A stretch of DNA of 12,532 nt from Candidatus Aenigmatarchaeota archaeon (GTDB lineage: Archaea; Aenigmatarchaeota; Aenigmatarchaeia; QMZP01): contig JBDRSV010000021.1 in assembly GCA_043824495.1 (NCBI GenBank), forward strand, positions 1 through 12,532, read 5' to 3'. Below, piece after piece: positions 1,727 through 12,532 of this stretch; position 1 is the first letter of the stretch; every line of letters starts with the position of its first letter. Made by a program: the position numbers and the translations under genes. The notes beneath the pieces are model-generated. The model was not told the DNA's origin, did no database searches, and saw only the letters and a program-made list of their open reading frames with translations.

Positions 1727-4700
1727 ATGCGATTAAAACTCGCGATTTCACTCGTGGTTGCAGTAATTTTGTTCTTATCAGTTACTAGTATTTACGCTCC
1801 ACAGTCCAGTGAACCTGTTATTCAGCAATATTGCACAGAATTTTTTTCATGTTTAGAGAATGGAACAGGAATAACATGCCAATGCGACCCTATAAATAAA
1901 AGTGATAATATATACGTAAACGGGTCCATCGGAAGTTATTTGGTCACAACATCGGGCACAGGATCTGCTATAATCAATGCTTCTTTTAATCAGAGTAGTA
2001 TTCCAGATGGAAGTAATATAACAAATGTTACATTGTTTATGGAGTGGGCTTCTAGTCATGACACAAGCGTAACGTGTTCAATCGAACTTTATACTGGAAC
2101 ATGGGAAATAGTTAATACCACATGTTTAACTACAGAGGACAACTATTCATATAATTTAAATTCCTTTATAGACACCGAGATAAAAGCCGAAAGTTTAATG
2201 ATAAGAGTTAATGTGACAAGTCTTAGTGGAACCAGATGGTTGATATTAGATAATATTTATGTCAACGTTACATACCTCCCGCCACATAGAACAAACAACT
2301 ATAACTTAACATATTCTAATGGTAGTATTGTTCCTGATGGGTTGGTAGTGTATAGGAATGAGACATTTAATGCATCTGCTTATTGGGAGACTGATAATGT
2401 TTACAATGCGCTTGTTGAACACAATGGAACAGGAAGCTTTGTGAATTATAGTTTTAATGAGAGTGCAGGATTCTATCCGCTTACTGGCAACTGGTCTAAT
2501 TATACATTAAATTTAAGCAATGGTACACTGTTTTCCACTCCTGGTATCATCGTATTTAGAATGCACACGGAGGATGAATATGGTCAATGGAATAGTACAC
2601 AGGTTGATCACTACTTGGCTTTGTGGGGAGAGAATCAGTTGACTAATCTAACATTCGATTCTACTACACTTATCAATGGTTCTAGTTCTGTTGTTTATTG
2701 TAATGTAAGTGATGTGAATACATCTGCTGCTATTGGTGGTTACAATGTATCCTTCTATCAAAACGATGTCCTGTGGAATTATTCTCTTACAAATGCTAGT
2801 GGTATATCCAATGTAACTTATGTGGATAGTTCAACTGCAGCTCAGAATATTACATTCAAATGTAATATAACATCTGATTCTAGCTTGTTCTACTTCTCAT
2901 CATCAGTGTACGAACAGTCAAGTAATGTCAGCATAGTGACGATTAACACAATAAATATGACAGTAAATTATTCCATCTATAACAGAGGAGAAAACGTGAC
3001 ATTCGTTTTGCTAGATAACTATAACAATACAATCAGCAATGTTTCTTGGAACATTACGTGGATTAATTATACTGAAACTGTGGAGATTATTTATGACCAA
3101 ACAAACGAAACTTATTATCATACAATAAGCGACACTGAAAACGTAGGGAATCATACAGTGCTAGTTAATGTAACTAAGAATGGAGAATATTTTCAATCTA
3201 ATTGGACATTTAATATAAGCTCAACTCTTATAGCTAATTTTTCTTATCCACCAGAAAACACAACGTATGTTATAGACACACCTATAGCTGATCCTCAAGT
3301 TCAAGTTTTCAATATAAGAAATGAAAGTTTGGGATATAGCATCACATCGGTTTTTGACTGTCCTGGTGTAGGTACGGTAGCACTGTCAACACAAGATTAT
3401 GTGATTTATAATTCAACAACGGATTGTGATGCCCCTTCAGCAGCAGGAGCGTTTAACTTAATAGCGAGAATGGGAGTTATTGGAGACTCGAGGAACAATT
3501 TAAATGTTACCTTGTCTTTGATAGCTGTTAATCCTGGACAGAGTGTTAGATACTCCAACATAACTTATGCGTCTAATGGGACAAACATAACCGATGGCGA
3601 TCAGTTCTATAGAAGTGATATTCTTAATATTACAACTTTCTGGAATACCAGTAACGTAACACTTGCCTATGTAGAACACAACGGAACAGGAAGTTTTGTG
3701 AACTACACGGTGAATGATACTAATGCTTCTGGTTATTATCCTACTTTGGGTAACTGGAGTAATGGAACTCTTAATTTAAGTGATTTCACAAGATTCCTAA
3801 AAGCAGGTAATATAGTTGTTAGAATGCATGCCCATGATGTATATGATCAAACAAATTCAACAGTAGATCATAATTTCTCTTTCTGGGGAGATGCCAATGT
3901 TTCTGACTTTGATTATGATGGTTCTTCGATAATCAATGGAAGCAGCATAAACTTCTATTGTAATGTAAGTGATGTCAACACGTCTTCAATACTAGAAAAT
4001 TATAATGTGACTTTCTATCAAAATGGTGTTCAGTTTAATTATTCTCTTACAAACTCAAGTGGAATAGCTACTGGGTTGTACACTGATAGTTCCACAGTTA
4101 ACCAGAATATTACTTTCAAATGTAACATAACAGATCATGCTCCAGTTTTCTATAATAATTCAGCTGGAAGTGAAGCAGGATCCAATGTGAGTGTAGTCAC
4201 CTTGAGTACAATCAACTTAACAAACAACATGACAGTAAGTAATGCGACCGTGTATAACCGGGGAGAGAACATGACTATAGCTGTTCTGGACTCTGATAAT
4301 AATACTGTGAATTCTCTTTCATGGAATGTGACCATTGTCAAGTTTAATGAAACCGCAAATATCACGTTCAGCCAGACAAATGATACATACACATACACAC
4401 TGAATACAACGGAACCAGTTGGTAATTATTCTATATTTGTGAATGTGAGTAAAGGAGGAAACTATTTGGAGACCAACTGGACATTTAATGTGTCTAATGA
4501 ATTGTCAGCAACATTCTACAAACCACTTGAAGGCTCGTCAATAGCTACTAGTGGAATCATAACAGATCCTGTTGTTGTGATATTAAATGCTAGAAGTGAA
4601 AACTTGAGCTACATTGTTAATGTTTCTGTAGAATGTCCTAATACTGGTGGATCACTTGCTAACACAACAGCTAATGCAACAAACACCACATATGAGAATG

Positions 4701-5971
4701 CAGGTTTAACATGCACTGCTCCTTCAAGTGCGGGGGCATTCCAGATTATTGCTAACACAAGTGATACTTCTGGTAATTTAGGTAACGGTACAGTGGGTCT
4801 AACAGCAACCGCTTCTGTTACAGTTGTTACTGGTGGCGGAGCTGGTGGAGGATCAGCTCAGCCACTCAACTGCACTTGTGATGAATGGGTAAGTCAGGAA
4901 TGTGGAGCTGGTGGATGTGATGTTAATTCCATATTCCAAACCAGAACATGTAGTCCTTCTGCTTGTTCAAATGAAACACGGTGTGTGGCTTCTCCAAGTT
5001 GTATTGGTGTTCGTGATTTCGAATTTAATGTGAGTACAGAAGAGATAACGGTAGTGCAAGGAAATAGTGATACTGTTGTGGGTTCTGTTATTAACACTGG
5101 AGATTTCTTATTGGATATGAATGTTACAATACAAGCTGATTGTTGTGAAATAAATCCTATTGAAGGATTCACATTAGAACCAAAGGAAACAAAAAATTTC
5201 CCTGTGAATATTCATGTTCCTCTATCACAAACACCAGGAACTTACGTAGCTACGGTACAAGCTATTACACGAACATTAACAAAAGAAAACTCGGTTAAGA
5301 TCATAGTTCAGCAGCATCCTTTGATACCTAAGATTAAACAGATGGAATCGAAGTTAGTGGAATTAGAAAGACTTATAGCAGATAGCAGAGACGCTGGTGT
5401 TCCTGTGGCTGAGTTAGAAGAGTTAGCAGGAAACATAGAAACTGCAATAGGATCAGCTAAAGAAGGGATACAACAAGACAATTTGGACAAGCTTGAATCT
5501 CAAATAAACTTCGCAGAGAGTAATGTAGGATTAATAGAAACACGATTGGCTCAATTGGGAATAGTTAAGATTCTGGCTGAAAATAAATTCGGGATAGGCG
5601 GAGCATTTTTATTTGGGTTGTTTTTTGCATATTTGTTTTCCCAGGTAGTGATTCCTTACATGAGACTGGGAAGAAGTATAGGAAAACTTCTAGGCGAAGA
5701 GAAAGAACTTGTTGGAACAAGACAAGCAACAGAAAAACAATATTTCACAAGAAGGATAGATGAAAAAACATTTAACACAATTATGATAAGTGGACAAGGT
5801 AAAATACTCAAAGCGCGTTCTCAGTTGAAAATAATGAAAGAAGAACGAAGCAGCTTGATTAAGGCAAGACTTACACCAAAGGCTTTGTTCAACTGGCTTA
5901 AGTCTGGACCAAAAAAACTTGGTGGAAAATTCAGAAGAAACAAGAGACAAGAATTCATGTTCCAAAGATAA
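1727..5971 (+). CDS. Giant single-pass cell-surface glycoprotein (S-layer/adhesin-like)
   Basis: Signal peptide; about 100 N-X-S/T sequons by hand count; duplicated beta-rich region; Gly linker (4832-4855); 8-Cys thrombospondin-like module (4871-5002, W..C..C...QTRTC); Ig-like NEW3/CARDB-type domain (V.NTG...PGTY); helical stalk (~5315-5560); TM helix (5588-5662); basic tail of about 100 aa. Confidence 0.85.
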   Translation: MRLKLAISLVVAVILFLSVTSIYAPQSSEPVIQQYCTEFFSCLENGTGITCQCDPINKSDNIYVNGSIGSYLVTTSGTGSAIINASFNQSSIPDGSNITNVTLFMEWASSHDTSVTCSIELYTGTWEIVNTTCLTTEDNYSYNLNSFIDTEIKAESLMIRVNVTSLSGTRWLILDNIYVNVTYLPPHRTNNYNLTYSNGSIVPDGLVVYRNETFNASAYWETDNVYNALVEHNGTGSFVNYSFNESAGFYPLTGNWSNYTLNLSNGTLFSTPGIIVFRMHTEDEYGQWNSTQVDHYLALWGENQLTNLTFDSTTLINGSSSVVYCNVSDVNTSAAIGGYNVSFYQNDVLWNYSLTNASGISNVTYVDSSTAAQNITFKCNITSDSSLFYFSSSVYEQSSNVSIVTINTINMTVNYSIYNRGENVTFVLLDNYNNTISNVSWNITWINYTETVEIIYDQTNETYYHTISDTENVGNHTVLVNVTKNGEYFQSNWTFNISSTLIANFSYPPENTTYVIDTPIADPQVQVFNIRNESLGYSITSVFDCPGVGTVALSTQDYVIYNSTTDCDAPSAAGAFNLIARMGVIGDSRNNLNVTLSLIAVNPGQSVRYSNITYASNGTNITDGDQFYRSDILNITTFWNTSNVTLAYVEHNGTGSFVNYTVNDTNASGYYPTLGNWSNGTLNLSDFTRFLKAGNIVVRMHAHDVYDQTNSTVDHNFSFWGDANVSDFDYDGSSIINGSSINFYCNVSDVNTSSILENYNVTFYQNGVQFNYSLTNSSGIATGLYTDSSTVNQNITFKCNITDHAPVFYNNSAGSEAGSNVSVVTLSTINLTNNMTVSNATVYNRGENMTIAVLDSDNNTVNSLSWNVTIVKFNETANITFSQTNDTYTYTLNTTEPVGNYSIFVNVSKGGNYLETNWTFNVSNELSATFYKPLEGSSIATSGIITDPVVVILNARSENLSYIVNVSVECPNTGGSLANTTANATNTTYENAGLTCTAPSSAGAFQIIANTSDTSGNLGNGTVGLTATASVTVVTGGGAGGGSAQPLNCTCDEWVSQECGAGGCDVNSIFQTRTCSPSACSNETRCVASPSCIGVRDFEFNVSTEEITVVQGNSDTVVGSVINTGDFLLDMNVTIQADCCEINPIEGFTLEPKETKNFPVNIHVPLSQTPGTYVATVQAITRTLTKENSVKIIVQQHPLIPKIKQMESKLVELERLIADSRDAGVPVAELEELAGNIETAIGSAKEGIQQDNLDKLESQINFAESNVGLIETRLAQLGIVKILAENKFGIGGAFLFGLFFAYLFSQVVIPYMRLGRSIGKLLGEEKELVGTRQATEKQYFTRRIDEKTFNTIMISGQGKILKARSQLKIMKEERSSLIKARLTPKALFNWLKSGPKKLGGKFRRNKRQEFMFQR
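2288..4815 (+). repeat. Internal tandem duplication, two units of about 420 aa (~1.26 kb)
   Basis: VEHNGTGSFVNY at ~2417 and ~3674; YCNVSDVNTS at 2699 and 3959; NYSLTN, QNITFKCNIT, YNRGEN, NWTFN and APS.AGAF each recur at a 1257-1287 nt offset; exact 20-nt match tattgtaatgtaagtgatgt in both units. Confidence 0.95.
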
Positions 5972-6010: not shown

Positions 6011-6742
6011 ATGACAGAAAGAACCCGAGTTTCTACGGGAATCCACGGTCTTGACGAAAAAATGCAAGGCGGATTTTTTAGAGGAAGTGTAAACTTACTC
6101 ACAGGTAAGACTGGTACGGGAAAAACTGCTTTCTCCTCATCTTTTATTAGACATGGTGCTATGATAAACGAGCCAGGATTATATGTAACAACCGAACAAC
6201 GAGCGGAAGATATCAAAGGCGATATATTTTCAATGTTTAATTGGGATTTTGCAGAACTAGAAAAAAAGAGAATGGTTAAATTTATTTCGATAAAACCAAT
6301 ATTCCCATCAAGAACAACAGCATTAGAAGATGTGAATAAAATTGTTAAATTGTATATTTCTAGTATTCTAGATCAAGTTAAAACAAACATGGCTGAGATT
6401 AAAGCACAGAGAGTTGTAATAGATTCTATTTCTATAATTGAGATGTTCATAAGAGATGAATATTTATCAAGAGTGGCTTTAATGCAGTTAATAGATAACA
6501 TAAGACAAACTGGAGTCACGTCGTTAATAACAGGAACTATACCAGAAACATCAGAAGCTCTTTCAGGTGGAGGAATAGTAGAATATATAGTAGACTCTGT
6601 GGTCAAACTAGACTTCGTTCCTATTTCAGAAGAATTCAAAAGAACACTCACGATAAGAAAAATGAGAAGAACAGATCACTCAACAATGATACATCCATTT
6701 GAAATGGCAAAATTTGGAATACAATTAATTGAAATTGAGTGA
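6011..6742 (+). CDS. KaiC-like/RAD55-family RecA-superfamily ATPase 1 (single domain)
   Basis: N-terminal TGIHGLD, Walker A GKTGTGKT, Walker B RVVIDS, Arg finger RKMRRT, C-terminal HPFEM..FGI; carries EQ at the usual EE position. Confidence 0.92.
   Translation: MTERTRVSTGIHGLDEKMQGGFFRGSVNLLTGKTGTGKTAFSSSFIRHGAMINEPGLYVTTEQRAEDIKGDIFSMFNWDFAELEKKRMVKFISIKPIFPSRTTALEDVNKIVKLYISSILDQVKTNMAEIKAQRVVIDSISIIEMFIRDEYLSRVALMQLIDNIRQTGVTSLITGTIPETSEALSGGGIVEYIVDSVVKLDFVPISEEFKRTLTIRKMRRTDHSTMIHPFEMAKFGIQLIEIE
6108..6126. repeat. 19-nt exact inverted repeat shared with 10575-10593 (Walker A codons of both KaiC genes)
   Basis: agactggtacgggaaaaac at 6108-6126 is the reverse complement of gtttttcccgtaccagtct at 10575-10593. 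Confidence 0.9.
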
Positions 6743-6746
6743 AATT

Positions 6747-7175
6747 ATGGTTAACGGACGCGCTTTAATCGCAATTATTATTATCGCAATAGTTTTCTTA
6801 GTTGGAATAAAAGCTCTCAATGCAACATCAAGTAAAGTGTGCTCTATAGACATTGATTGTGTTATATACAAAACACAGTGTTGCACAGAGTGTGACATGG
6901 GTGAATCTGTGAGTAAATTCTATACCGGGCCATTAACAATAGAAAAAGCTGTTTACTGCTCTACAACAGTCATGTGTCCTAAGATGGATTGTATTGATTT
7001 ACCAATCATAGATCCGGTTTGCAATCAAAACATGTGTGATACAAAAATTAATTGTGAAAAAACATGCGATGCTCTACACAAACAATTAGAACAATTTGAA
7101 GGTAGAGAAGGATTCGAAGATTACATTCCTCAACGGATAGACGAATTTAATGAAGAATTCGGTTGCAATTGTTAA
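6747..7175 (+). CDS. Small membrane-anchored or exported Cys-rich protein (14 Cys), possible class III (pilin-like) signal peptide
   Basis: ATG at 6747, 4 nt after the KaiC1 stop, preferred over the overlapping TTG at 6729; MVNGRA-LIAIIIIAIVFLVG hydrophobic N-terminus; C.xDxDC...CC..C...C.....C....C...C....C...C...C...CNC pattern. Confidence 0.75.
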   Translation: MVNGRALIAIIIIAIVFLVGIKALNATSSKVCSIDIDCVIYKTQCCTECDMGESVSKFYTGPLTIEKAVYCSTTVMCPKMDCIDLPIIDPVCNQNMCDTKINCEKTCDALHKQLEQFEGREGFEDYIPQRIDEFNEEFGCNC

Positions 7176-7176
7176 T

Positions 7177-7227
7177 TCTGGAGTATTCCAAAAGAATCAT
7201 ATATAAGGGGTTTGGACTATTCATAAA
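7177..7227 (+). promoter_or_regulatory. BRE-TATA promoter of the wHTH-V4R-GGR-UbiA operon, flanked by two related semi-palindromic sites
   Basis: Purine-rich aaaagaa (7190-7196), then TATATAA (7200-7206) 23-29 nt upstream of ATG 7229; sites TCTGGAGTATTCCAAAA (7177-7193) and TTTGGACTATTCATAAA (7211-7227) match at 13 of 17 positions. Confidence 0.6.
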
Positions 7228-7228
7228 T

Positions 7229-7507
7229 ATGGAACTTTTTACAGAGACGAGAGAAATCAAAGACAAAAAAACAAAAGAGGTTTTTGAGGCTATAGTTTCT
7301 AATTGGCCAGCTAATCCAGTAGAGGTTGCTGGAGCTTTGGATGATGAAGGGAAAGTAAAGACATTATCAGCAAAATACTTGTATCATTTTAAGAAACTAG
7401 AAAAATTAAACAAAATCCAAATGAAGAAACTGGGAAATACTTACATAGCATGGCCTTCTGATGTGGAAAAGATTAGAGTAGCCCATGAAATTTTAAGAGA
7501 TGATTAG
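7229..7507 (+). CDS. Small winged helix-turn-helix protein (ArsR-like putative regulator), 92 aa
   Basis: Start reassigned to ATG 7229 from the promoter spacing; PVEVAGAL...LSAKYLYHFKKLEKLNKIQMKKLGNTYIAWP fits helix-turn-helix followed by a beta-hairpin wing. Confidence 0.65.
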   Translation: MELFTETREIKDKKTKEVFEAIVSNWPANPVEVAGALDDEGKVKTLSAKYLYHFKKLEKLNKIQMKKLGNTYIAWPSDVEKIRVAHEILRDD

Positions 7508-7508
7508 A

Positions 7509-8075
7509 ATGTTTGGAGTGATGAAAAAGCTTTTGATGGCAAGACAGATTAAATTTGAAGAGGGACGTATAGTGCTTTTTGGTCAGAGAATTTTCATGAT
7601 ACCAACGTATAGTTATATCACTTTACAATTGAAACTAGAAGAGTCTGGGTTAGCGCATTTAATTTATCATAGTACAAAAGATTTGGGAAAACAGTGGACA
7701 CTCGATCTTCAGAAAAACTACAAAACAAATCACAAGTATGTTGTAGATTGGGGAATAAACATAGTCAACCTAGCTGGATATGGTGTTGCTGAGACTGTTA
7801 AAGATGATCCAGAAAATAATCATTCTGCTTTTAGATTAAAAGATTCTGCTACTGCCGAATATGTGTTAAAGGCATTGAAAAAGAAAAGCGAATACCCTGT
7901 ATGCCATTTATTCAGAGGAATGATAACAGGAACGTTTTCCGTTTTATATAAAACAGATTTGGATGGGATAGAAACTAAATGTAAAGCAATGGGATATCCA
8001 CATTGCGAATTCATACTCAAACCTAAAAAAGAGTTTGACTTGACTGACAAACAAATCAAAAGGCAGTTAGGATGA
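7509..8075 (+). CDS. Stand-alone V4R (4-vinyl reductase) domain protein
   Basis: C-terminal PVCHLFRG...GIETKCKAMGYPHCEF matches the V4R C...E-x2-C-x7-C signature. The start is either ATG 7500 (overlapping) or ATG 7509 (1 nt after the wHTH stop, preferred). Confidence 0.85.
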   Translation: MFGVMKKLLMARQIKFEEGRIVLFGQRIFMIPTYSYITLQLKLEESGLAHLIYHSTKDLGKQWTLDLQKNYKTNHKYVVDWGINIVNLAGYGVAETVKDDPENNHSAFRLKDSATAEYVLKALKKKSEYPVCHLFRGMITGTFSVLYKTDLDGIETKCKAMGYPHCEFILKPKKEFDLTDKQIKRQLG

Positions 8076-9157
8076 TGGAAAAAGACGTTGTCATAATAGG
8101 AGCAGGGGTAGCCGGTTTATATCTATCTAAAATGCTTGAAAGAAAGGGCATTAGTTACATCACTCTTGAGAAGAATTATTTTGTTGGTAAATATGGAAAC
8201 AGAGTGATCAATAAAGATGTTTTTAGAAAGGTTGGTCTTAGATATGATGATACAATAAGACCAATTAAAAAAATGAATTTCTATTCTCCTTCTGGTATTG
8301 TACTTACACATTCTAGTGAAGATAGAGGATTTGTTGTAAACCTAAGAGAAGTTGAAAAAACATTGTACAGATCCATAATAAACAAAGACAACATAAGGCT
8401 AAGACAAAGTGTATCTAAAATAGATTTAGAAAACGGTGTGGTCAGAACACAAGAACTTGAAATAAAAGCTAAGATTATCATATTGGCATATGGTGGAGTT
8501 CAAAAAACATTTAATATAACTCCAGAAAAACCAAGATTAGCTTTGTGTTATGCACATGAAGTGGAAGGAAATGATGATATATCAATAGTACTAGATAACA
8601 AAATAACTTCTGGTTTCTATGGATGGATAATTCCAATACATGATGGTACAATAGAGATAGGATTTGGAACAACAACCCCAAATGGAATTAATTTTAAAGA
8701 TGCGTTATACAGGTTGCCTCAGTTGTATAAGTATAAAGATGCAAAGGTAGTGGAAAAACTTGGGGGATATATTCCAATATCAGTTGTCAAACAAAAGAGC
8801 GGTAAGAATTGGATCCTGATAGGAGATGCATCTGGAGGAGAACCGATGTTGGGAGGCTCTATACACAAAGGTATAGATGAAGCTATACTAGCGTCTTTTG
8901 TGATAGAGAAATACTTAAATAATATTGTAGTTTCTTTGGAAGAATATGACGAGTTATGGAACTATATTAAATTGAATATAGACAAACAAGAAAAAGTAAG
9001 AATGCTTTTAGATTCGTCAGAAAATCATGAAATTGATACTAGTTTTAACATGTTACTGAAGAAACCGGTGAATGGAGAAGGTCTAATAAATGACATGTTC
9101 AAAAACATTATATCAAACCTAGAAACAGTGAAAAGAAATAAAATGGTAACTTATTGA
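8072..9157 (+). CDS. Geranylgeranyl reductase-like FAD-dependent oxidoreductase (divergent)
   Basis: Rossmann DVVIIGAGVAG...E; YGWIIP resembling YxWxFP; GGYIP; LIGDASG...GGSI; ATGA overlap with the V4R stop. Several GGR motifs are degenerate. Confidence 0.75.
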   Translation: MMEKDVVIIGAGVAGLYLSKMLERKGISYITLEKNYFVGKYGNRVINKDVFRKVGLRYDDTIRPIKKMNFYSPSGIVLTHSSEDRGFVVNLREVEKTLYRSIINKDNIRLRQSVSKIDLENGVVRTQELEIKAKIIILAYGGVQKTFNITPEKPRLALCYAHEVEGNDDISIVLDNKITSGFYGWIIPIHDGTIEIGFGTTTPNGINFKDALYRLPQLYKYKDAKVVEKLGGYIPISVVKQKSGKNWILIGDASGGEPMLGGSIHKGIDEAILASFVIEKYLNNIVVSLEEYDELWNYIKLNIDKQEKVRMLLDSSENHEIDTSFNMLLKKPVNGEGLINDMFKNIISNLETVKRNKMVTY

Positions 9158-10015
9158 ATGTTTATGGCTATCACATTAGAAAATTTCAAGAATCTAGTAT
9201 TGCCCCAATATCTCATTGTAATTCTATTCAGTTTATTCTCTAGTTATATTGTTATATCAGGTACGCTTAGTTTGTTTTTAGTGTTACCATTCTTAGCTAT
9301 ATCCTTTGCAATGTTCGCGTTGAATATAACAAATAATATAGTTGATATTGATCTAGATAAAATAAACAAACCTAAAAGGCCTCTACCTTCAGGTAAAATG
9401 TCTGTAAAAGAAGCTAAGATGCTTGTTGTCGTATGTGTTTTTCTATCGCTATTATTTTCCTCTTTGACTAACTGGATAACTTTTGTAATGATTATAGTGT
9501 TTCATATACTTTCTGTTCTGTATTCTATTCCTCCACTAAGACTCAAAAGATTTCTTTTCGCAGATAATATTATAGGTAGTATAATATATGGTGCCTTCCC
9601 TTTTGTGATTGCTTGGTCCCTCTTATCAGAAGAATTCTCTATAATATTTTTGATATTTTTCAGTGGACTAATATTTGCAATTGCATCAATCAAAGATTTA
9701 GAAGATGTTAAGGGAGAAAAAGAAAAAGGAATAGACACGTTGCCCATTAGAATTGGTGTAAAGAATTCTATTTTATTTACAGTGTCAATAATGTTTGTGG
9801 TATTGTTAATGATGTTTGCATCGTCTTTGTTAGGTATGATAGATTTTATTTACATTTATCCTTCTCTGGTTTCTTTGTTAATTTGGATTTTGTTTTATGT
9901 TAAATCTCGAAAAGTTAATATAGAGAAAAATGTAATTACACAATCCAAAATAATGACAACAAGTATGATAGTCGTGGCTGTTTATTATGTTTCTTTTGCT
10001 TTAGCAAGTCTATAA
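9158..10015 (+). CDS. UbiA-superfamily membrane prenyltransferase (DGGGP synthase-like)
   Basis: N59xxxD63xxxD67 followed by INKPKRPLPSG; YSIPPLRLKR; KDLEDVKGE...G..TLP; about 8-9 hydrophobic segments; ATG directly abuts the GGR stop (alternative ATG at 9164). Confidence 0.9.
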   Translation: MFMAITLENFKNLVLPQYLIVILFSLFSSYIVISGTLSLFLVLPFLAISFAMFALNITNNIVDIDLDKINKPKRPLPSGKMSVKEAKMLVVVCVFLSLLFSSLTNWITFVMIIVFHILSVLYSIPPLRLKRFLFADNIIGSIIYGAFPFVIAWSLLSEEFSIIFLIFFSGLIFAIASIKDLEDVKGEKEKGIDTLPIRIGVKNSILFTVSIMFVVLLMMFASSLLGMIDFIYIYPSLVSLLIWILFYVKSRKVNIEKNVITQSKIMTTSMIVVAVYYVSFALASL

Positions 10016-10684
10016 TTCAGGTTTCTTTACAACGATTCCGTGCTTGGTTATGTTGAATGGATATACATCTTTCCCGTGATTTGTTCCTCTCATTTTTCTT
10101 ATAACCAAACTTCTTGCAGAAACTTCTCCCAGACCAAGATAATTGAGTATTATTACACTGTCTGTTGCGAATTCTTCTACACCGAATCTAGAAAGAGCTT
10201 TAGAACTCTCTGGTATTTCTGAAGTTAAAATGGATGTGCATCCAACTCTTTTTAGAGTTCCAATCAAGTTCATTATCCTTCTTCTTATCTGAGCTAAATT
10301 CTCTATAACTAATCCCATTATTGCGGTCGAATCTATTACAAGTCTCGTTGCTTCCATATTGGTTATTTCATCTGCTAGAACAGCTCCAAGATTATTTACT
10401 TGTGCAGGATCATGGTAAATTATTTTACAAAGACCTTTTTTTTCAAATTTTTCAAAGTCCCAACCAAACAAAGAAGAGTCTTGTTTTATGTCCTGTGGGC
10501 TTTCTTCCAGTGAAATGTAAACACAACTTTCACCTCTTTGTAATCCTTCCCATAAGTATTGAGAAGAAAATATTGTTTTTCCCGTACCAGTCTCTCCTGT
10601 TAAAAGATTAACTGAACCTTGAATAAATCCACCTTCAATCAAGGCGTCCAGTCCAGGGATTCCCGTAGGTGTTCTTTTTATCAT
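10010..10684 (-). CDS. KaiC-like/RAD55-family RecA-superfamily ATPase 2 (single domain)
   Basis: TGIPGLD, Walker A GETGTGKT, YISLEE, Walker B RLVIDS, SRFGVEEFATD, Arg finger RKMRGT, YPFNIT..GI. Confidence 0.93.
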   Translation of the reverse strand: MIKRTPTGIPGLDALIEGGFIQGSVNLLTGETGTGKTIFSSQYLWEGLQRGESCVYISLEESPQDIKQDSSLFGWDFEKFEKKGLCKIIYHDPAQVNNLGAVLADEITNMEATRLVIDSTAIMGLVIENLAQIRRRIMNLIGTLKRVGCTSILTSEIPESSKALSRFGVEEFATDSVIILNYLGLGEVSARSLVIRKMRGTNHGKDVYPFNITKHGIVVKKPEL

Positions 10685-10705
10685 AATTTATACTTTGTTT
10701 ACATT

Positions 10706-10720
10706 CCTTAAAACCATTTC
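10706..10720 (-). promoter_or_regulatory. BRE-TATA promoter for KaiC-like ATPase 2
   Basis: Minus strand reads GAAATGG-TTTTAA-GG; TTTTAA (plus 10708-10713) lies 24-29 nt upstream of the ATG at 10684. Confidence 0.55.
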
Positions 10721-10731
10721 TGCTCCCAGAA

Positions 10732-11775
10732 TTAATCTATAATGTATAGCTGGCGTCTCATTTCATTAACTTTAGATTCTACACTAGAAACATCAAAATC
10801 GTTCTCTGCTGACATCCTAGAATTACCAACACTGTGAAAGAAATCGGTCATTTCTGGTGTTTCTGGCATGAATACTCCTATATCTAAACCAACCGTGCCC
10901 GAGACTGCTGGTTTAACTATGTGGTTTATGGCAAAATTTCCTGGATTTTGATAATACTCATTCAAAGCCATTGGAGCAGCATAACCAACGCTTATACTAT
11001 ATATCAATAGCTTGCTGATCTCATCAGCTTCACTGAATGCTATGAGATCTTCAGGATCTCTAGAAGCAATACCTTCCATTAATACTACAGCTGAATCCAG
11101 TTTATCTGCGGATTCTTCCATGAGTCTATACATTGCATCCTTGAAAACATCTTCGGATCTTATATCTTCTAATGCTTTTTCTGAAGTCAAACTTTCTCCT
11201 ATTTTATTTGTAATCCCGCTTATGACCAACTTGGTAACAAAATCTTTTCCGTAATCAGCTAACGTCTTACCAGCTTCTGCCACTATATGGGCTTTACCTG
11301 CAGTGCTTGATGGAAGAAGAGAAAATAAAAGTCCTGTAACTTTTTGTGTTGCATCTAAAGTGAATTCTGCAAGATTTGTTGTTGCAAGAAATTCCCTGTA
11401 TTTAGCAGATGTTTCTTTGGTTCTGTTTATCAAATCATCTTGTTTGATGTATTTACACATTCTAGCTGCTGATGTGATTGTGTCGCAAATATCAGGGCCT
11501 ATAGAACCAGGCAATATATCATTATTTTCATCAACGATCAACCAAAGTTGATTTAGATTGCCTTCTCCATGATTGTTCACTACGAAGTGAGCTCTGTAAA
11601 TATTACCATCGTGTGCTATTCTATATCCCTGGAATAAACCGAGATGATCAGGATGGTATTTGATAAAATCTGTATAACCAGGAACTTGTTTTTCAAATGG
11701 AATGGCTTGAGCTGTAGCTGCACTTGGCCGAAGGGCTAATGGAATGCTCAATAGTGAGTATTTTCCTATTTTCAT
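10732..11775 (-). CDS. Hypothetical protein (347 aa), possibly exported; no recognised family
   Basis: Long ORF filling the gap between KaiC2 and the prenyl synthase with 47-49 nt intergenic gaps; signal-like N-terminus ending ATAQA; mostly helical-looking C-terminal two thirds. Confidence 0.7.
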   Translation of the reverse strand: MKIGKYSLLSIPLALRPSAATAQAIPFEKQVPGYTDFIKYHPDHLGLFQGYRIAHDGNIYRAHFVVNNHGEGNLNQLWLIVDENNDILPGSIGPDICDTITSAARMCKYIKQDDLINRTKETSAKYREFLATTNLAEFTLDATQKVTGLLFSLLPSSTAGKAHIVAEAGKTLADYGKDFVTKLVISGITNKIGESLTSEKALEDIRSEDVFKDAMYRLMEESADKLDSAVVLMEGIASRDPEDLIAFSEADEISKLLIYSISVGYAAPMALNEYYQNPGNFAINHIVKPAVSGTVGLDIGVFMPETPEMTDFFHSVGNSRMSAENDFDVSSVESKVNEMRRQLYIID

Positions 11776-11788
11776 GATTAATTCTGAA

Positions 11789-11811
11789 CCAAAGGCTTTT
11801 AATTATTAATT
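11789..11811. promoter_or_regulatory. Compact divergent promoter region (shared AT-rich TATA element)
   Basis: 49-nt gap between two divergent ATGs; plus strand CCAAAGG-C-TTTTAA (TTTTAA 11797-11802, 23-28 nt before ATG 11825); minus strand TTAATAATTAAAA at a similar distance from ATG 11775. Confidence 0.5.
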
Positions 11812-11824
11812 CCAATAGCTGTGC

Positions 11825-12532
11825 ATGGAAGAAGACATTCTGGATTATTTGTCAAACAAAAGAATAATCATTGATTCTCTAATCAAAACATATTTACCAA
11901 AGAACATAGATAAGAACTTCACTAATTGGGCCTTTGGAAAATCAACTTACAAATTTGATCTAGATGCAATAAACAATTCTATAACAAGACCTATATGGGA
12001 TTTCCTAGAGAGAGGTGGGAAGAGGTGGAGACCTGCCATGTTCCTGTTGATAGCAGAAGCCCTCGAAGGAGATTTAAATAAAATAACCGATTTTTGTATT
12101 GTTCCGGAATTAGCACACGAAGGTTCCATAATGATAGATGATATTGAGGATATGGGAGAAACAAGAAGAGGTAAACCGTGCACTCATAAAATATTTGGAA
12201 TTGATATTGCAATAAATGCTGGAAATATGATGTATTTCCTTCCATTATTAGTTTTCTTGAGAAACAAGGACAAAATAGACCAAGACATGCTCATGAAAGC
12301 CTATTACGTGTATTCACAAGAAATGATAAATCTCAGTGTAGGTCAAGGAATTGATATTTGGTGGCATAAAGGTAAGAAAGATGATATTGAAGAAGAAGAA
12401 TATTTACAAATGTGTGCTTACAAAACGGGCACACTGGCTCGCATGGCTGCTAAATTGGGAGTTGTTTTATCCGGAGGAACCGAAGAACAAGAACAAAAAC
12501 TAGGAAAGCTAGCAGAATCTATTGGGGTTGCG
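11825..12532 (+). CDS. trans-Polyprenyl diphosphate synthase (IdsA/GGPP synthase-like), 3'-partial; absent from the ORF track
   Basis: Translated by hand, 236 codons open to the window end: MEEDILDYL...RGGKRWRP...HEGSIMIDDIEDMGETRRGKP...NAGNMMYF...GQGIDIWW...YKTGTL. Contains the GGKRxRP, FARM (DDIED, 12137-12151), RRG, GQxxD and KT motifs. Confidence 0.95.
   Translation, partial: MEEDILDYLSNKRIIIDSLIKTYLPKNIDKNFTNWAFGKSTYKFDLDAINNSITRPIWDFLERGGKRWRPAMFLLIAEALEGDLNKITDFCIVPELAHEGSIMIDDIEDMGETRRGKPCTHKIFGIDIAINAGNMMYFLPLLVFLRNKDKIDQDMLMKAYYVYSQEMINLSVGQGIDIWWHKGKKDDIEEEEYLQMCAYKTGTLARMAAKLGVVLSGGTEEQEQKLGKLAESIGVA

Follow-up and report, generated by a model that had tools for sequence, protein, structure and literature searches.

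V4R domains bind small hydrophobic or aromatic ligands. In the methanogen regulator MsvR such a domain is fused to a helix-turn-helix (HTH) module, and the resulting homodimer represses its own promoter by way of inverted repeats that make up at least two boxes, its DNA binding being modulated by three cysteines of the V4R domain (PMC3729527). Archaeal KaiC-like ATPases, for their part, have been described as 'signal transduction hubs' (Makarova, Galperin & Koonin 2017, as cited in PMC5847659). Here, a computational analysis is presented of a 12,532-bp stretch of DNA, which is the entire contig C21 of a Candidatus Aenigmatarchaeota genome (approximately 1.01 Mb in 29 contigs, 80% complete) and is referred to throughout as the window. 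Within it, genes for a winged helix-turn-helix protein (wHTH), a stand-alone V4R protein, a flavoprotein of the geranylgeranyl reductase (GGR) family and a UbiA-family prenyltransferase follow one another on the same strand, and meet a convergent gene for a KaiC-like ATPase (KaiC2). An earlier reading of the same sequence, the original prediction, had proposed a module in which the V4R protein senses a prenyl lipid and relays the signal through a pair of KaiC-like ATPases and the wHTH protein. On the evidence assembled below it seems fairly probable that the core of the locus is instead a self-regulated, and probably ligand-responsive, operon of wHTH, V4R, GGR-like flavoprotein and UbiA genes that resembles a split MsvR.

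The gene map was drawn from a listing of open reading frames (ORFs) together with Pfam and NCBIfam scans of the window. The features of the core are given here by position, strand and identity.

7179-7190, no strand: predicted operator O1, palindrome TGGAGTATTCCA, one mismatch from the consensus TGGAATATTCCA, just 5' of the transcription factor B recognition element (BRE) and TATA box
7199-7206, + strand: TATA-like box ATATATAA for the wHTH operon, with its centre about 26 nt 5' of the start codon at 7229, assigned by position only
7213-7224, no strand: predicted operator O2, imperfect copy TGGACTATTCAT, located 3' of the TATA box and 5' of the ATG
7229-7507, + strand: wHTH, a small winged-helix protein of 92 aa, identified from its AlphaFold2 (AF2) fold
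7509-8075, + strand: V4R, a stand-alone sensor-type protein of 188 aa (PF02830, 53 bits against a cut-off of 31)
8072-9157, + strand: divergent GGR-family flavoprotein, a predicted accessory paralogue (TIGR02032, 108.7 bits against a cut-off of 158.8)
9158-10015, + strand: UbiA-family prenyltransferase, a predicted accessory paralogue (PF01040, 141.7 bits, E 3e-41)
10010-10684, - strand: KaiC2, a single-domain KaiC-like ATPase of 224 aa (PF06745, 225.9 bits, E 5.7e-67)

According to the ORF coordinates and the sequence, the wHTH stop codon (7505-7507) and the V4R ATG (7509) are separated by a spacer of a single nucleotide, the V4R start being placed at 7509 rather than 7500, as orthologues likewise begin MF..KKLL. 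The V4R stop codon (8073-8075) overlaps the ATG of the GGR-like gene (8072-8074) in an ATGA junction, and the stop codon of the latter (9155-9157) is followed at a 0-nt junction by the UbiA ATG (9158). The genes, strands and junctions described in the original prediction are confirmed by these coordinates; two ORFs, at 6747-7175 and 10732-11775, had been missed. At the distal end UbiA and KaiC2 converge with directly adjoining stop codons (CTA and TAA, 10010-10015) and no space for a terminator, and the two transcripts may overlap as antisense. A near-zero convergent junction between these genes was seen also in the related loci L039, L111, L112 and L115.

In order to examine the promoter, the upstream regions of 39 wHTH genes, from 38 relatives and the window, were aligned on the start codon. 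In the wHTH subfamily of the window the alignment contains a 12-bp palindrome with the consensus TGGAATATTCCA, located 36-39 nt before the ATG and directly 5' of a TATA-like box, and exact copies occupy that promoter position in eight relatives (L037, L038, L056, L120, L121, L122, L124 and L129). In the fetched loci, 1.56 Mb in total with some overlap, the exact palindrome was found 15 times compared with an expectation of approximately 0.3 per Mb, and O1 is the sole match in the window, where 0.22 would be expected. O2 departs from the consensus at three positions; orthologous promoters carry a second, degenerate copy (GGAATATTCT, GGATAATTCT and similar) in the O2 position, with the TATA-like element lying between the two copies. 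Judged from the alignments, such conserved palindromes are the signature of a dimeric autoregulator, and the placement of the predicted sites, on either side of the TATA box and over the start point, suggests repression. Gene spacing and promoter alignment together show a tight predicted four-gene operon behind a promoter with conserved paired palindromes.

Other wHTH subfamilies have different palindromes at the same promoter position, namely TTCACATATGTGAA (L040, L048, L050, L052, L054 and L055), TTGCAAyTAGTTGCAA (L051 and L058) and TAGCTATAGCTA-like sequences (L111, L112 and L115), and the first two of these track a different recognition helix (NIKKISYHIKELEK, NVSK(I/V)RYHF). Further exact or near-exact operator sites were noted in relatives at L120:14969, L121:11943 and L122:12643. 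At L121:9753-12574 (genome G135) the genes that come after the wHTH-V4R pair are an AMP-binding-like ORF, a UbiE/COQ5-type methyltransferase and a transglutaminase-like ORF, and the site at L121:11943, a second exact copy of TGGAATATTCCA, stands at the start of the transglutaminase-like ORF. From this gene set and its second exact site, it follows that the regulator family may drive other cargo too.

The wHTH protein itself matched no Pfam or NCBIfam model, and its best profile match in the PDB (5duk) reached only E 0.014. An AF2 model built from 16 homologues nonetheless has a predicted local distance difference test score (pLDDT) of 85 and the topology helix-helix-helix-wing-helix, with secondary structure elements assigned by DSSP as H13-24, H30-36, H43-59, E63-68, E71-76 and H77-91. 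The top Foldseek matches to this model are all winged-helix regulators (AF1382, CzrA, SmtB, CadC and ArsR; probability 1.0, template modelling (TM) score 0.5-0.6, E approximately 1e-2), and residues W26, P27, Y52, H53, W75 and P76 are invariant in the family. At the level of the model, then, the assignment of the fold stands; that of membership in a sequence family does not. The role of DNA-binding output that had been proposed for the protein is plausible on the modelled fold, and is in keeping with the probable operator at its own promoter.

The V4R protein gave a more confident AF2 model (pLDDT 92), which Foldseek matched over its whole length (approximately 190 columns) to the phenol-sensor domain of PoxR, MopR and DmpR with TM scores of 0.76-0.78 and E 1e-13; weaker matches were to MJ1460 and to Bet3/TRAPP subunits. 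The proposal that it is a sensor of the hydrophobic-ligand type is thereby supported, as far as a modelled fold allows (TM 0.77, E 1e-13). A motif of the form (C/D)...E-x2-C-x7-C was recognised in the protein, of which the window's first Cys, E155, C158 and C166 align to PoxR; among 17 orthologues the E, C and C are invariant, with C or D in the first position. These same residues raise the alternative that, instead of sensing a lipid, V4R is an MsvR-like redox or metal switch whose Cys/Glu/Cys/Cys set detects oxidants or metal, and that the operon is a stress response modifying prenylated compounds such as quinone-like antioxidants. The motif aligns with the three conserved cysteines of MsvR at a spacing of 24 and 8 residues, compared with 26 and 8 in MaMsvR, and the NCBIfam MsvR model (NF053755) is the best V4R-type match (E 5e-6). 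Also in favour of this alternative are the scores of the window UbiA protein on homogentisate phytyltransferase and chlorophyll synthase models, which are nearly equal to those on digeranylgeranylglyceryl phosphate synthase (DGGGPS) models, and the UbiE/COQ5-type methyltransferase among the genes after wHTH-V4R in L121. However, the MsvR match amounts to 26.3 bits against a cut-off of 220 and covers the V4R part only. Moreover, the first cysteine is replaced by Asp in most orthologues, which is more in keeping with a structural metal site, such as that of MopR/PoxR, than with a thiol switch, so that an MsvR-like thiol switch is unlikely to be general. The redox or metal alternative is accordingly considered very improbable.

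Next, the recurrence of the gene linkage, which had been set beforehand as the test of the prediction, was examined. Four anchors were used. The V4R protein was searched for in 61 relatives and its Pfam model in 201 genomes of the phylum, the polyprenyl (isoprenyl diphosphate) synthase gene, abbreviated IPPS, was followed across the phylum, and the wHTH family, represented by a 6-sequence alignment, was sought in 185,579 species genomes. Approximately 100 loci were fetched and scanned with hidden Markov models made from the window proteins and their first matches. Within 6 kb of wHTH, V4R was found in 32 of 38 unique loci, any KaiC-like gene in 28 and a KaiC2-type gene in 22; a UbiA, GGR-like or IPPS gene was likewise present in 22, and KaiC together with an isoprenoid enzyme in 18. 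When the loci chosen by IPPS were excluded, an isoprenoid enzyme remained near 17 of 33 wHTH anchors and KaiC near 23 of 33. By a rough estimate, a random 13-kb stretch of a 1-Mb genome that has a handful of such genes would hold one less than 10% of the time. The linkage of wHTH and V4R with KaiC, UbiA, GGR and IPPS genes thus recurs across the phylum, as had been anticipated, and in many gene orders.

At least eight such orders were distinguished. The layout of the window, in which wHTH and V4R, with optional flavoprotein and UbiA genes, converge on KaiC2, recurs in L037, L039, L111, L112, L115, L120 and L124, the same loci in which KaiC2 is convergent with UbiA. Elsewhere the order is wHTH-V4R-UbiA-flavoprotein (L096), wHTH-KaiC2-V4R followed by UbiA and flavoprotein genes (L076), IPPS divergent from KaiC2-V4R and then a GGR-family gene (L046, L049, L053, L078 and L079), or IPPS-IPPS-GGR-wHTH-V4R-GGR-UbiA (L137, on contig JAGGVJ010000038.1, from a record titled 'Ca. 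Iainarchaeum'). No KaiC gene was seen within the 12.5 kb examined at L137; ten KaiC-family matches occur elsewhere in that genome, including one right at the beginning of a different contig.

Gene neighbourhoods show the KaiC2-type ATPase to be a conserved genomic partner of V4R and of the predicted cassette. KaiC2 and V4R are co-directional, and either 3-15 bp apart or overlapping, in eight loci (L046, L047, L049, L053, L076, L078, L079 and L086), and KaiC2 is divergent from IPPS in seven families, with a spacing of 49-196 bp in relatives; this divergent pair is absent from most other families sampled. The window has two such proteins, KaiC1 and KaiC2, which are 41% identical and both exceed the PF06745 cut-off of 26.6. 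Their motifs are, respectively, Walker A GKTGTGKT, TEQ and Walker B RVVIDS, and Walker A GETGTGKT, LEES and Walker B RLVIDS; in KaiC2, residues G30, G33, G35, K36, T37, the catalytic Glu E60 and D118 are invariant among 16 orthologues. Cyanobacterial circadian KaiC has two tandem domains (about 500 aa) and works with KaiA and KaiB partners. The present proteins are single-domain and score far below the cut-offs of NF006799 and TIGR02655, and Pfam and NCBIfam scans revealed no KaiA or KaiB gene in the window. V4R or wHTH proteins are reportedly among the partners described for archaeal KaiC hubs. Co-folding of KaiC2 (alignment A3) with V4R (alignment A4) gave a score of 0.00, a value that counts neither for nor against an interaction.

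The position of V4R among enzyme genes invites a different interpretation, namely that it is a carrier or chaperone for a hydrophobic compound that the UbiA and GGR-like enzymes use or make, with KaiC2 providing ATP-driven loading or extraction and wHTH alone being transcriptional. V4R is translationally coupled to the enzymes, and its fold resembles Bet3/TRAPP, one matched entry being titled as covalently bound to a palmitoyl group. There is also a precedent of sorts, in that BchJ has been suggested to act as a carrier in bacteriochlorophyll synthesis, alongside the UbiA-family BchG and the GGR-family BchP, and the V4R/BchJ, UbiA/BchG and GGR/BchP families all score here in NCBIfam. Conversely, KaiC adjoins V4R in 16 of 20 phylum-wide V4R loci, mostly without a UbiA or GGR gene. 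The V4R gene keeps company with wHTH in the large majority of loci counted above, and the two modules are fused in MsvR; the nearest structures, moreover, are sensor domains of transcription activators. A carrier function therefore seems distinctly unlikely.

The enzymes encoded in the cassette were examined also. Both Asp-rich motifs of UbiA, NNIVDIDLD and KDLEDVKGEKEKG, align to the DGGGPS of M. jannaschii (6M31), and yet the protein falls below all NCBIfam equivalog cut-offs (91.5 bits against 296 for PRK12882, and 117.7 against 269 for PRK12884). Two further UbiA genes occur on other contigs of the same genome (G000), one DGGGPS-like on C14 and one MenA-like on C18; the C14 paralogue, which adjoins aIF2-beta, reaches 246.7 bits on the DGGGP-synthase model. 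The flavoprotein likewise has a paralogue, on C15, with the best TIGR02032 score in the genome (166.9 bits). These scores show the cassette UbiA and flavoprotein to be, by prediction, accessory paralogues and not the housekeeping DGGGP synthase and GGR. The earlier idea that the module tunes the membrane lipids is left unsupported in consequence, given that the canonical-scoring DGGGPS-like and GGR genes lie on other contigs.

GGR enzymes are characterised by a flavin adenine dinucleotide (FAD)-binding GxGxxG, a conserved Cys within K-x-C-G-G, YxWxFP and a GD motif. The cassette flavoprotein, which had been regarded as degenerate, keeps GAGVAG (GxGxxG), FYGWIIP and LIGDASGG (the GD motif), with KYGNR in place of K-x-C-G-G. 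Since the KYGNR variant is common to the closest orthologue, in L096, the protein is better described as divergent than as decayed. A phmmer search of the PDB gave no match to it at E 1e-3. The GGR-family genes of the various cassettes are not mutually orthologous, the type found in the window and L096 being without the conserved Cys and that of L041, L112 and L120 having KPCGG, indicating that such an enzyme has been recruited more than once.

The neighbouring IPPS belongs to PF00348 (144.4 bits against a cut-off of 27) and has DDIED as its first Asp-rich motif, the second lying past the contig end; its best NCBIfam matches are IdsA and GGPP (geranylgeranyl diphosphate) synthase. A second polyprenyl-synthase paralogue is encoded at G000:C11:12522-13040. 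The possibility that the window IPPS had been duplicated by assembly was rejected, this match being a paralogue 36% identical over 78 residues. Besides IPPS, the genome contains genes for HMG-CoA reductase, CarS, a DGGGPS-like protein and GGR. Neither geranylgeranylglyceryl phosphate synthase (GGGPS; PF01884) nor an Fe-ADH_2 protein of the glycerol-1-phosphate (G1P)-dehydrogenase type (PF13685) was found in this 80%-complete genome. However, 35 of 41 relatives do have GGGPS, among them the only other genome of the genus that was searched, and the gap is therefore probably due to incompleteness. The further suggestion that the module remodels lipids taken from a host is thus countered by a lineage that encodes a pathway of its own.

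The following account of the split MsvR-like operon is offered, its binding, ligand and product steps being ones that we infer from sequence. A dimer of wHTH would bind O1, abutting the BRE/TATA element, together with a weaker O2 over the transcription start, as the conserved operators suggest, and would control its own operon, most likely as a repressor. By analogy, V4R would be the sensing half of what methanogen MsvR has as a single wHTH-V4R polypeptide. Binding of a hydrophobic or aromatic, and possibly prenylated, ligand by V4R might then change DNA binding by wHTH, an idea put forward because MsvR fuses both modules. UbiA and the flavoprotein could attach, and perhaps reduce, a prenyl chain, yielding a specialised product, with the chain feasibly being supplied by the neighbouring short-chain prenyl diphosphate synthase. 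At the weakest step, KaiC2 may serve as an ATP-dependent processor between sensor and output, like the AAA+ domain in DmpR/MopR. A stronger version of that last step can be formulated by analogy, in which V4R, the KaiC-like RecA-type ATPase and wHTH would be a three-protein archaeal counterpart of the one-chain DmpR/MopR regulators; a prenylated or hydrophobic metabolite on V4R would gate KaiC, and remodelling of the wHTH-operator complex by the ATPase would in turn determine how much of the accessory prenyltransferase and reductase is made. The presence of a V4R-type sensor fold, an ATPase and an HTH in a single chain of DmpR and MopR makes a three-protein arrangement plausible, as an analogy only; the version set out here is nevertheless considered unlikely.

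Several observations weigh against the regulatory account as a whole, in addition to the replacement of the first V4R cysteine by Asp. Loci centred on IPPS inflate the IPPS counts, and genomes that share ancestry cannot be counted as independent samples. In close relatives the cassette has KaiC2-type genes, but not KaiC1, as conserved neighbours. KaiC2-IPPS pairs occur without V4R or wHTH (L057 and L061-L063), and cassettes occur without a nearby IPPS (L111, L112 and L115), one family carrying the cassette with IPPS far away, indicating that the three associations are separable. A genome-wide search for the operator at up to one mismatch returned 9 sites compared with 8.3 expected, of which only that at wHTH has a promoter context, and hence revealed no wider regulon; within the window, no intergenic site with up to two mismatches lies near KaiC1, KaiC2, IPPS or the ORF between the last two (p347). 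With no operator at other promoters of the genome, nothing ties wHTH to the KaiC2 or IPPS promoters, and its readable output is its own operon, V4R, flavoprotein and UbiA genes included. The relay through a KaiC pair that was proposed originally is not sustained by these results, since KaiC1 is no conserved neighbour and the KaiC and IPPS promoters have no operator.

These points also bring into consideration the possibility that the locus comprises two or three unrelated units kept together by descent, i.e. a wHTH-V4R-enzyme operon, KaiC2 (with KaiC1) as a general signalling ATPase, and a housekeeping IPPS, with their adjacency in compact 1-Mb genomes being inherited synteny. The lack of operators at KaiC2 and IPPS and the separable associations agree with this, as does the alignment by eye of 13 divergent KaiC2-IPPS spacers, in which no common motif was seen. 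IPPS, furthermore, is single-copy in most genomes of the phylum according to the phylum-wide search, hence housekeeping, and 24 of 40 IPPS-centred loci have no KaiC, V4R or wHTH gene within 8 kb. Inherited synteny, however, does not readily account for a convergent KaiC2/UbiA junction and a KaiC-V4R adjacency that survive many rearrangements, also in families with IPPS elsewhere, or for the eight loci in which KaiC2 and V4R are co-directional at such short distances. Mere descent is thus regarded as an unlikely, though conceivable, explanation of the whole arrangement.

The remaining features of the window are as follows.

8-1645, + strand: surface protein with NosD/beta-helix, Big_9 and PKD-like domains
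1727-5971, + strand: protein of 1414 aa with no Pfam family
6011-6742, + strand: KaiC1, a single-domain KaiC-like ATPase of 243 aa (PF06745, 190.9 bits, E 2.9e-56)
6747-7175, + strand: small Cys-rich orphan ORF with an N-terminal membrane anchor, described from the ORF and its translation
10732-11775, - strand: p347, an orphan 347-aa ORF with a signal-peptide-like N-terminus, between KaiC2 and IPPS
11825-12532, + strand: IPPS, a short-chain trans-polyprenyl diphosphate synthase (IdsA/GGPPS-like; PF00348), its 3' end cut by the contig end

The start codons of KaiC2 and IPPS lie 1.14 kb apart, and p347 occupies the space between them. Neither p347 nor the Cys-rich ORF matched Pfam or NCBIfam models, or had a homologue in any of the fetched loci scanned or elsewhere in the genome; the best score of p347 in the ESM Atlas, 0.78, was uninformative. 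The Cys-rich ORF is probably co-transcribed with KaiC1. In L096, the closest metagenomic relative (V4R 56% identical), three genes stand 5' of wHTH in place of KaiC1 and the Cys-rich ORF, encoding a glycosyltransferase, a shikimate-kinase-like protein and a SPASM-domain protein (L096:7436-9623). The C-terminus of the 1414-aa protein consists of a coiled coil, a membrane helix and a basic tail, and its residues 1199-1391 have a homologue (E 5e-13) at L078:11150-12295 on the - strand, in genome G076 of another family. That homologue stands directly upstream of a KaiC1-type gene, suggesting that KaiC1 may belong with this membrane protein and not with the wHTH operon. In L061 and L062 the KaiC2-IPPS pair has homologues of the surface protein (8-1645) close by. 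The window gave no match in Rfam and tRNA scans.

Archaeal KaiC-like ATPases are widespread and abundant, and almost none has a known input or output. Here a KaiC-type gene is tied, over many genomes and gene orders, to a ligand sensor, to a DNA-binding protein whose operator can be read from the sequence, and to the defined cargo of a prenyltransferase and a reductase-family flavoprotein. This gives it a concrete, testable output and brings the vague idea of a 'signalling hub' within reach of experiments, for which a 60-bp DNA fragment and four small soluble proteins would suffice. The locus points, too, to regulated isoprenoid tailoring in DPANN archaea, for whose symbiotic lifestyle membrane biology is a central question, and the covariation of wHTH subfamily and palindrome makes it possible to study in nature how DNA-binding specificity evolves. 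Were the three-protein DmpR/MopR-like version to hold, the locus would represent a feedback loop for isoprenoid-lipid tailoring in these archaea and the first defined input-to-output path for a KaiC-like 'hub'.

The building blocks of the locus are known ones, i.e. KaiC-like hubs, V4R sensors, wHTH autoregulators and MsvR. In the literature searched, which did not extend to the 2017 KaiC-hub paper itself, no paper linked KaiC or V4R with UbiA, GGR or prenyl synthase genes, and three aspects appear undescribed there: the split MsvR-like pair with a KaiC-type ATPase, the UbiA/GGR/IPPS cargo, and an operator that covaries with the wHTH subfamily. With respect to the BchJ/BchG/BchP set, the likeness consists in V4R, UbiA prenyltransferase and GGR-family reductase occurring together, and is one of analogy only, given that all the NCBIfam scores are far below cut-off and that wHTH and KaiC are not part of the bacteriochlorophyll pathway; nothing else in the window suggested tetrapyrrole metabolism, though no search aimed at tetrapyrrole genes was made. 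Compared with the archaeal ether-lipid enzymes, those of the locus are of the same families (PF00348, PF01040 and TIGR02032) and have the UbiA Asp-rich motifs and the GGR FAD motif, but the cassette UbiA and flavoprotein are extra paralogues below cut-offs, with better-scoring genes on C14 and C15, and the flavoprotein is without the conserved Cys. With the archaeal KaiC 'hubs' the locus has in common single-domain ATPases of the KaiC family whose genes adjoin those for putative sensor and output proteins.

The resemblance to DmpR, MopR and PoxR (PDB 6iy8, 5kbe and 5fru) is closest in V4R, the model of which superposes on the sensor domain and keeps the Cys/Glu/Cys/Cys motif, and extends to the set of functions, namely sensor, ATPase and HTH. 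Those regulators, however, are single polypeptides with an AAA+ domain that acts on sigma-54 RNA polymerase, whereas the window has a separate KaiC-like ATPase of the RecA superfamily and a separate winged helix, whose coupling is proposed by analogy only. To our knowledge, Archaea are without sigma-54. From MsvR the locus differs in that the HTH and V4R modules are separate, translationally coupled genes (7229-7507 and 7509-8075), in the operator (TGGAATATTCCA as opposed to TTCGN8CGAA), in a cargo of prenyl enzymes rather than oxidative-stress genes, and in being from a DPANN archaeon rather than a methanogen, with the first Cys being Asp in most orthologues. Nevertheless, in both cases HTH and V4R modules are paired, inverted-repeat boxes lie at the regulator's own promoter, here as O1 and O2 flanking the TATA box and with binding predicted, and the three conserved V4R cysteines of MsvR are spaced comparably to the C/E/C/C motif of the window protein.

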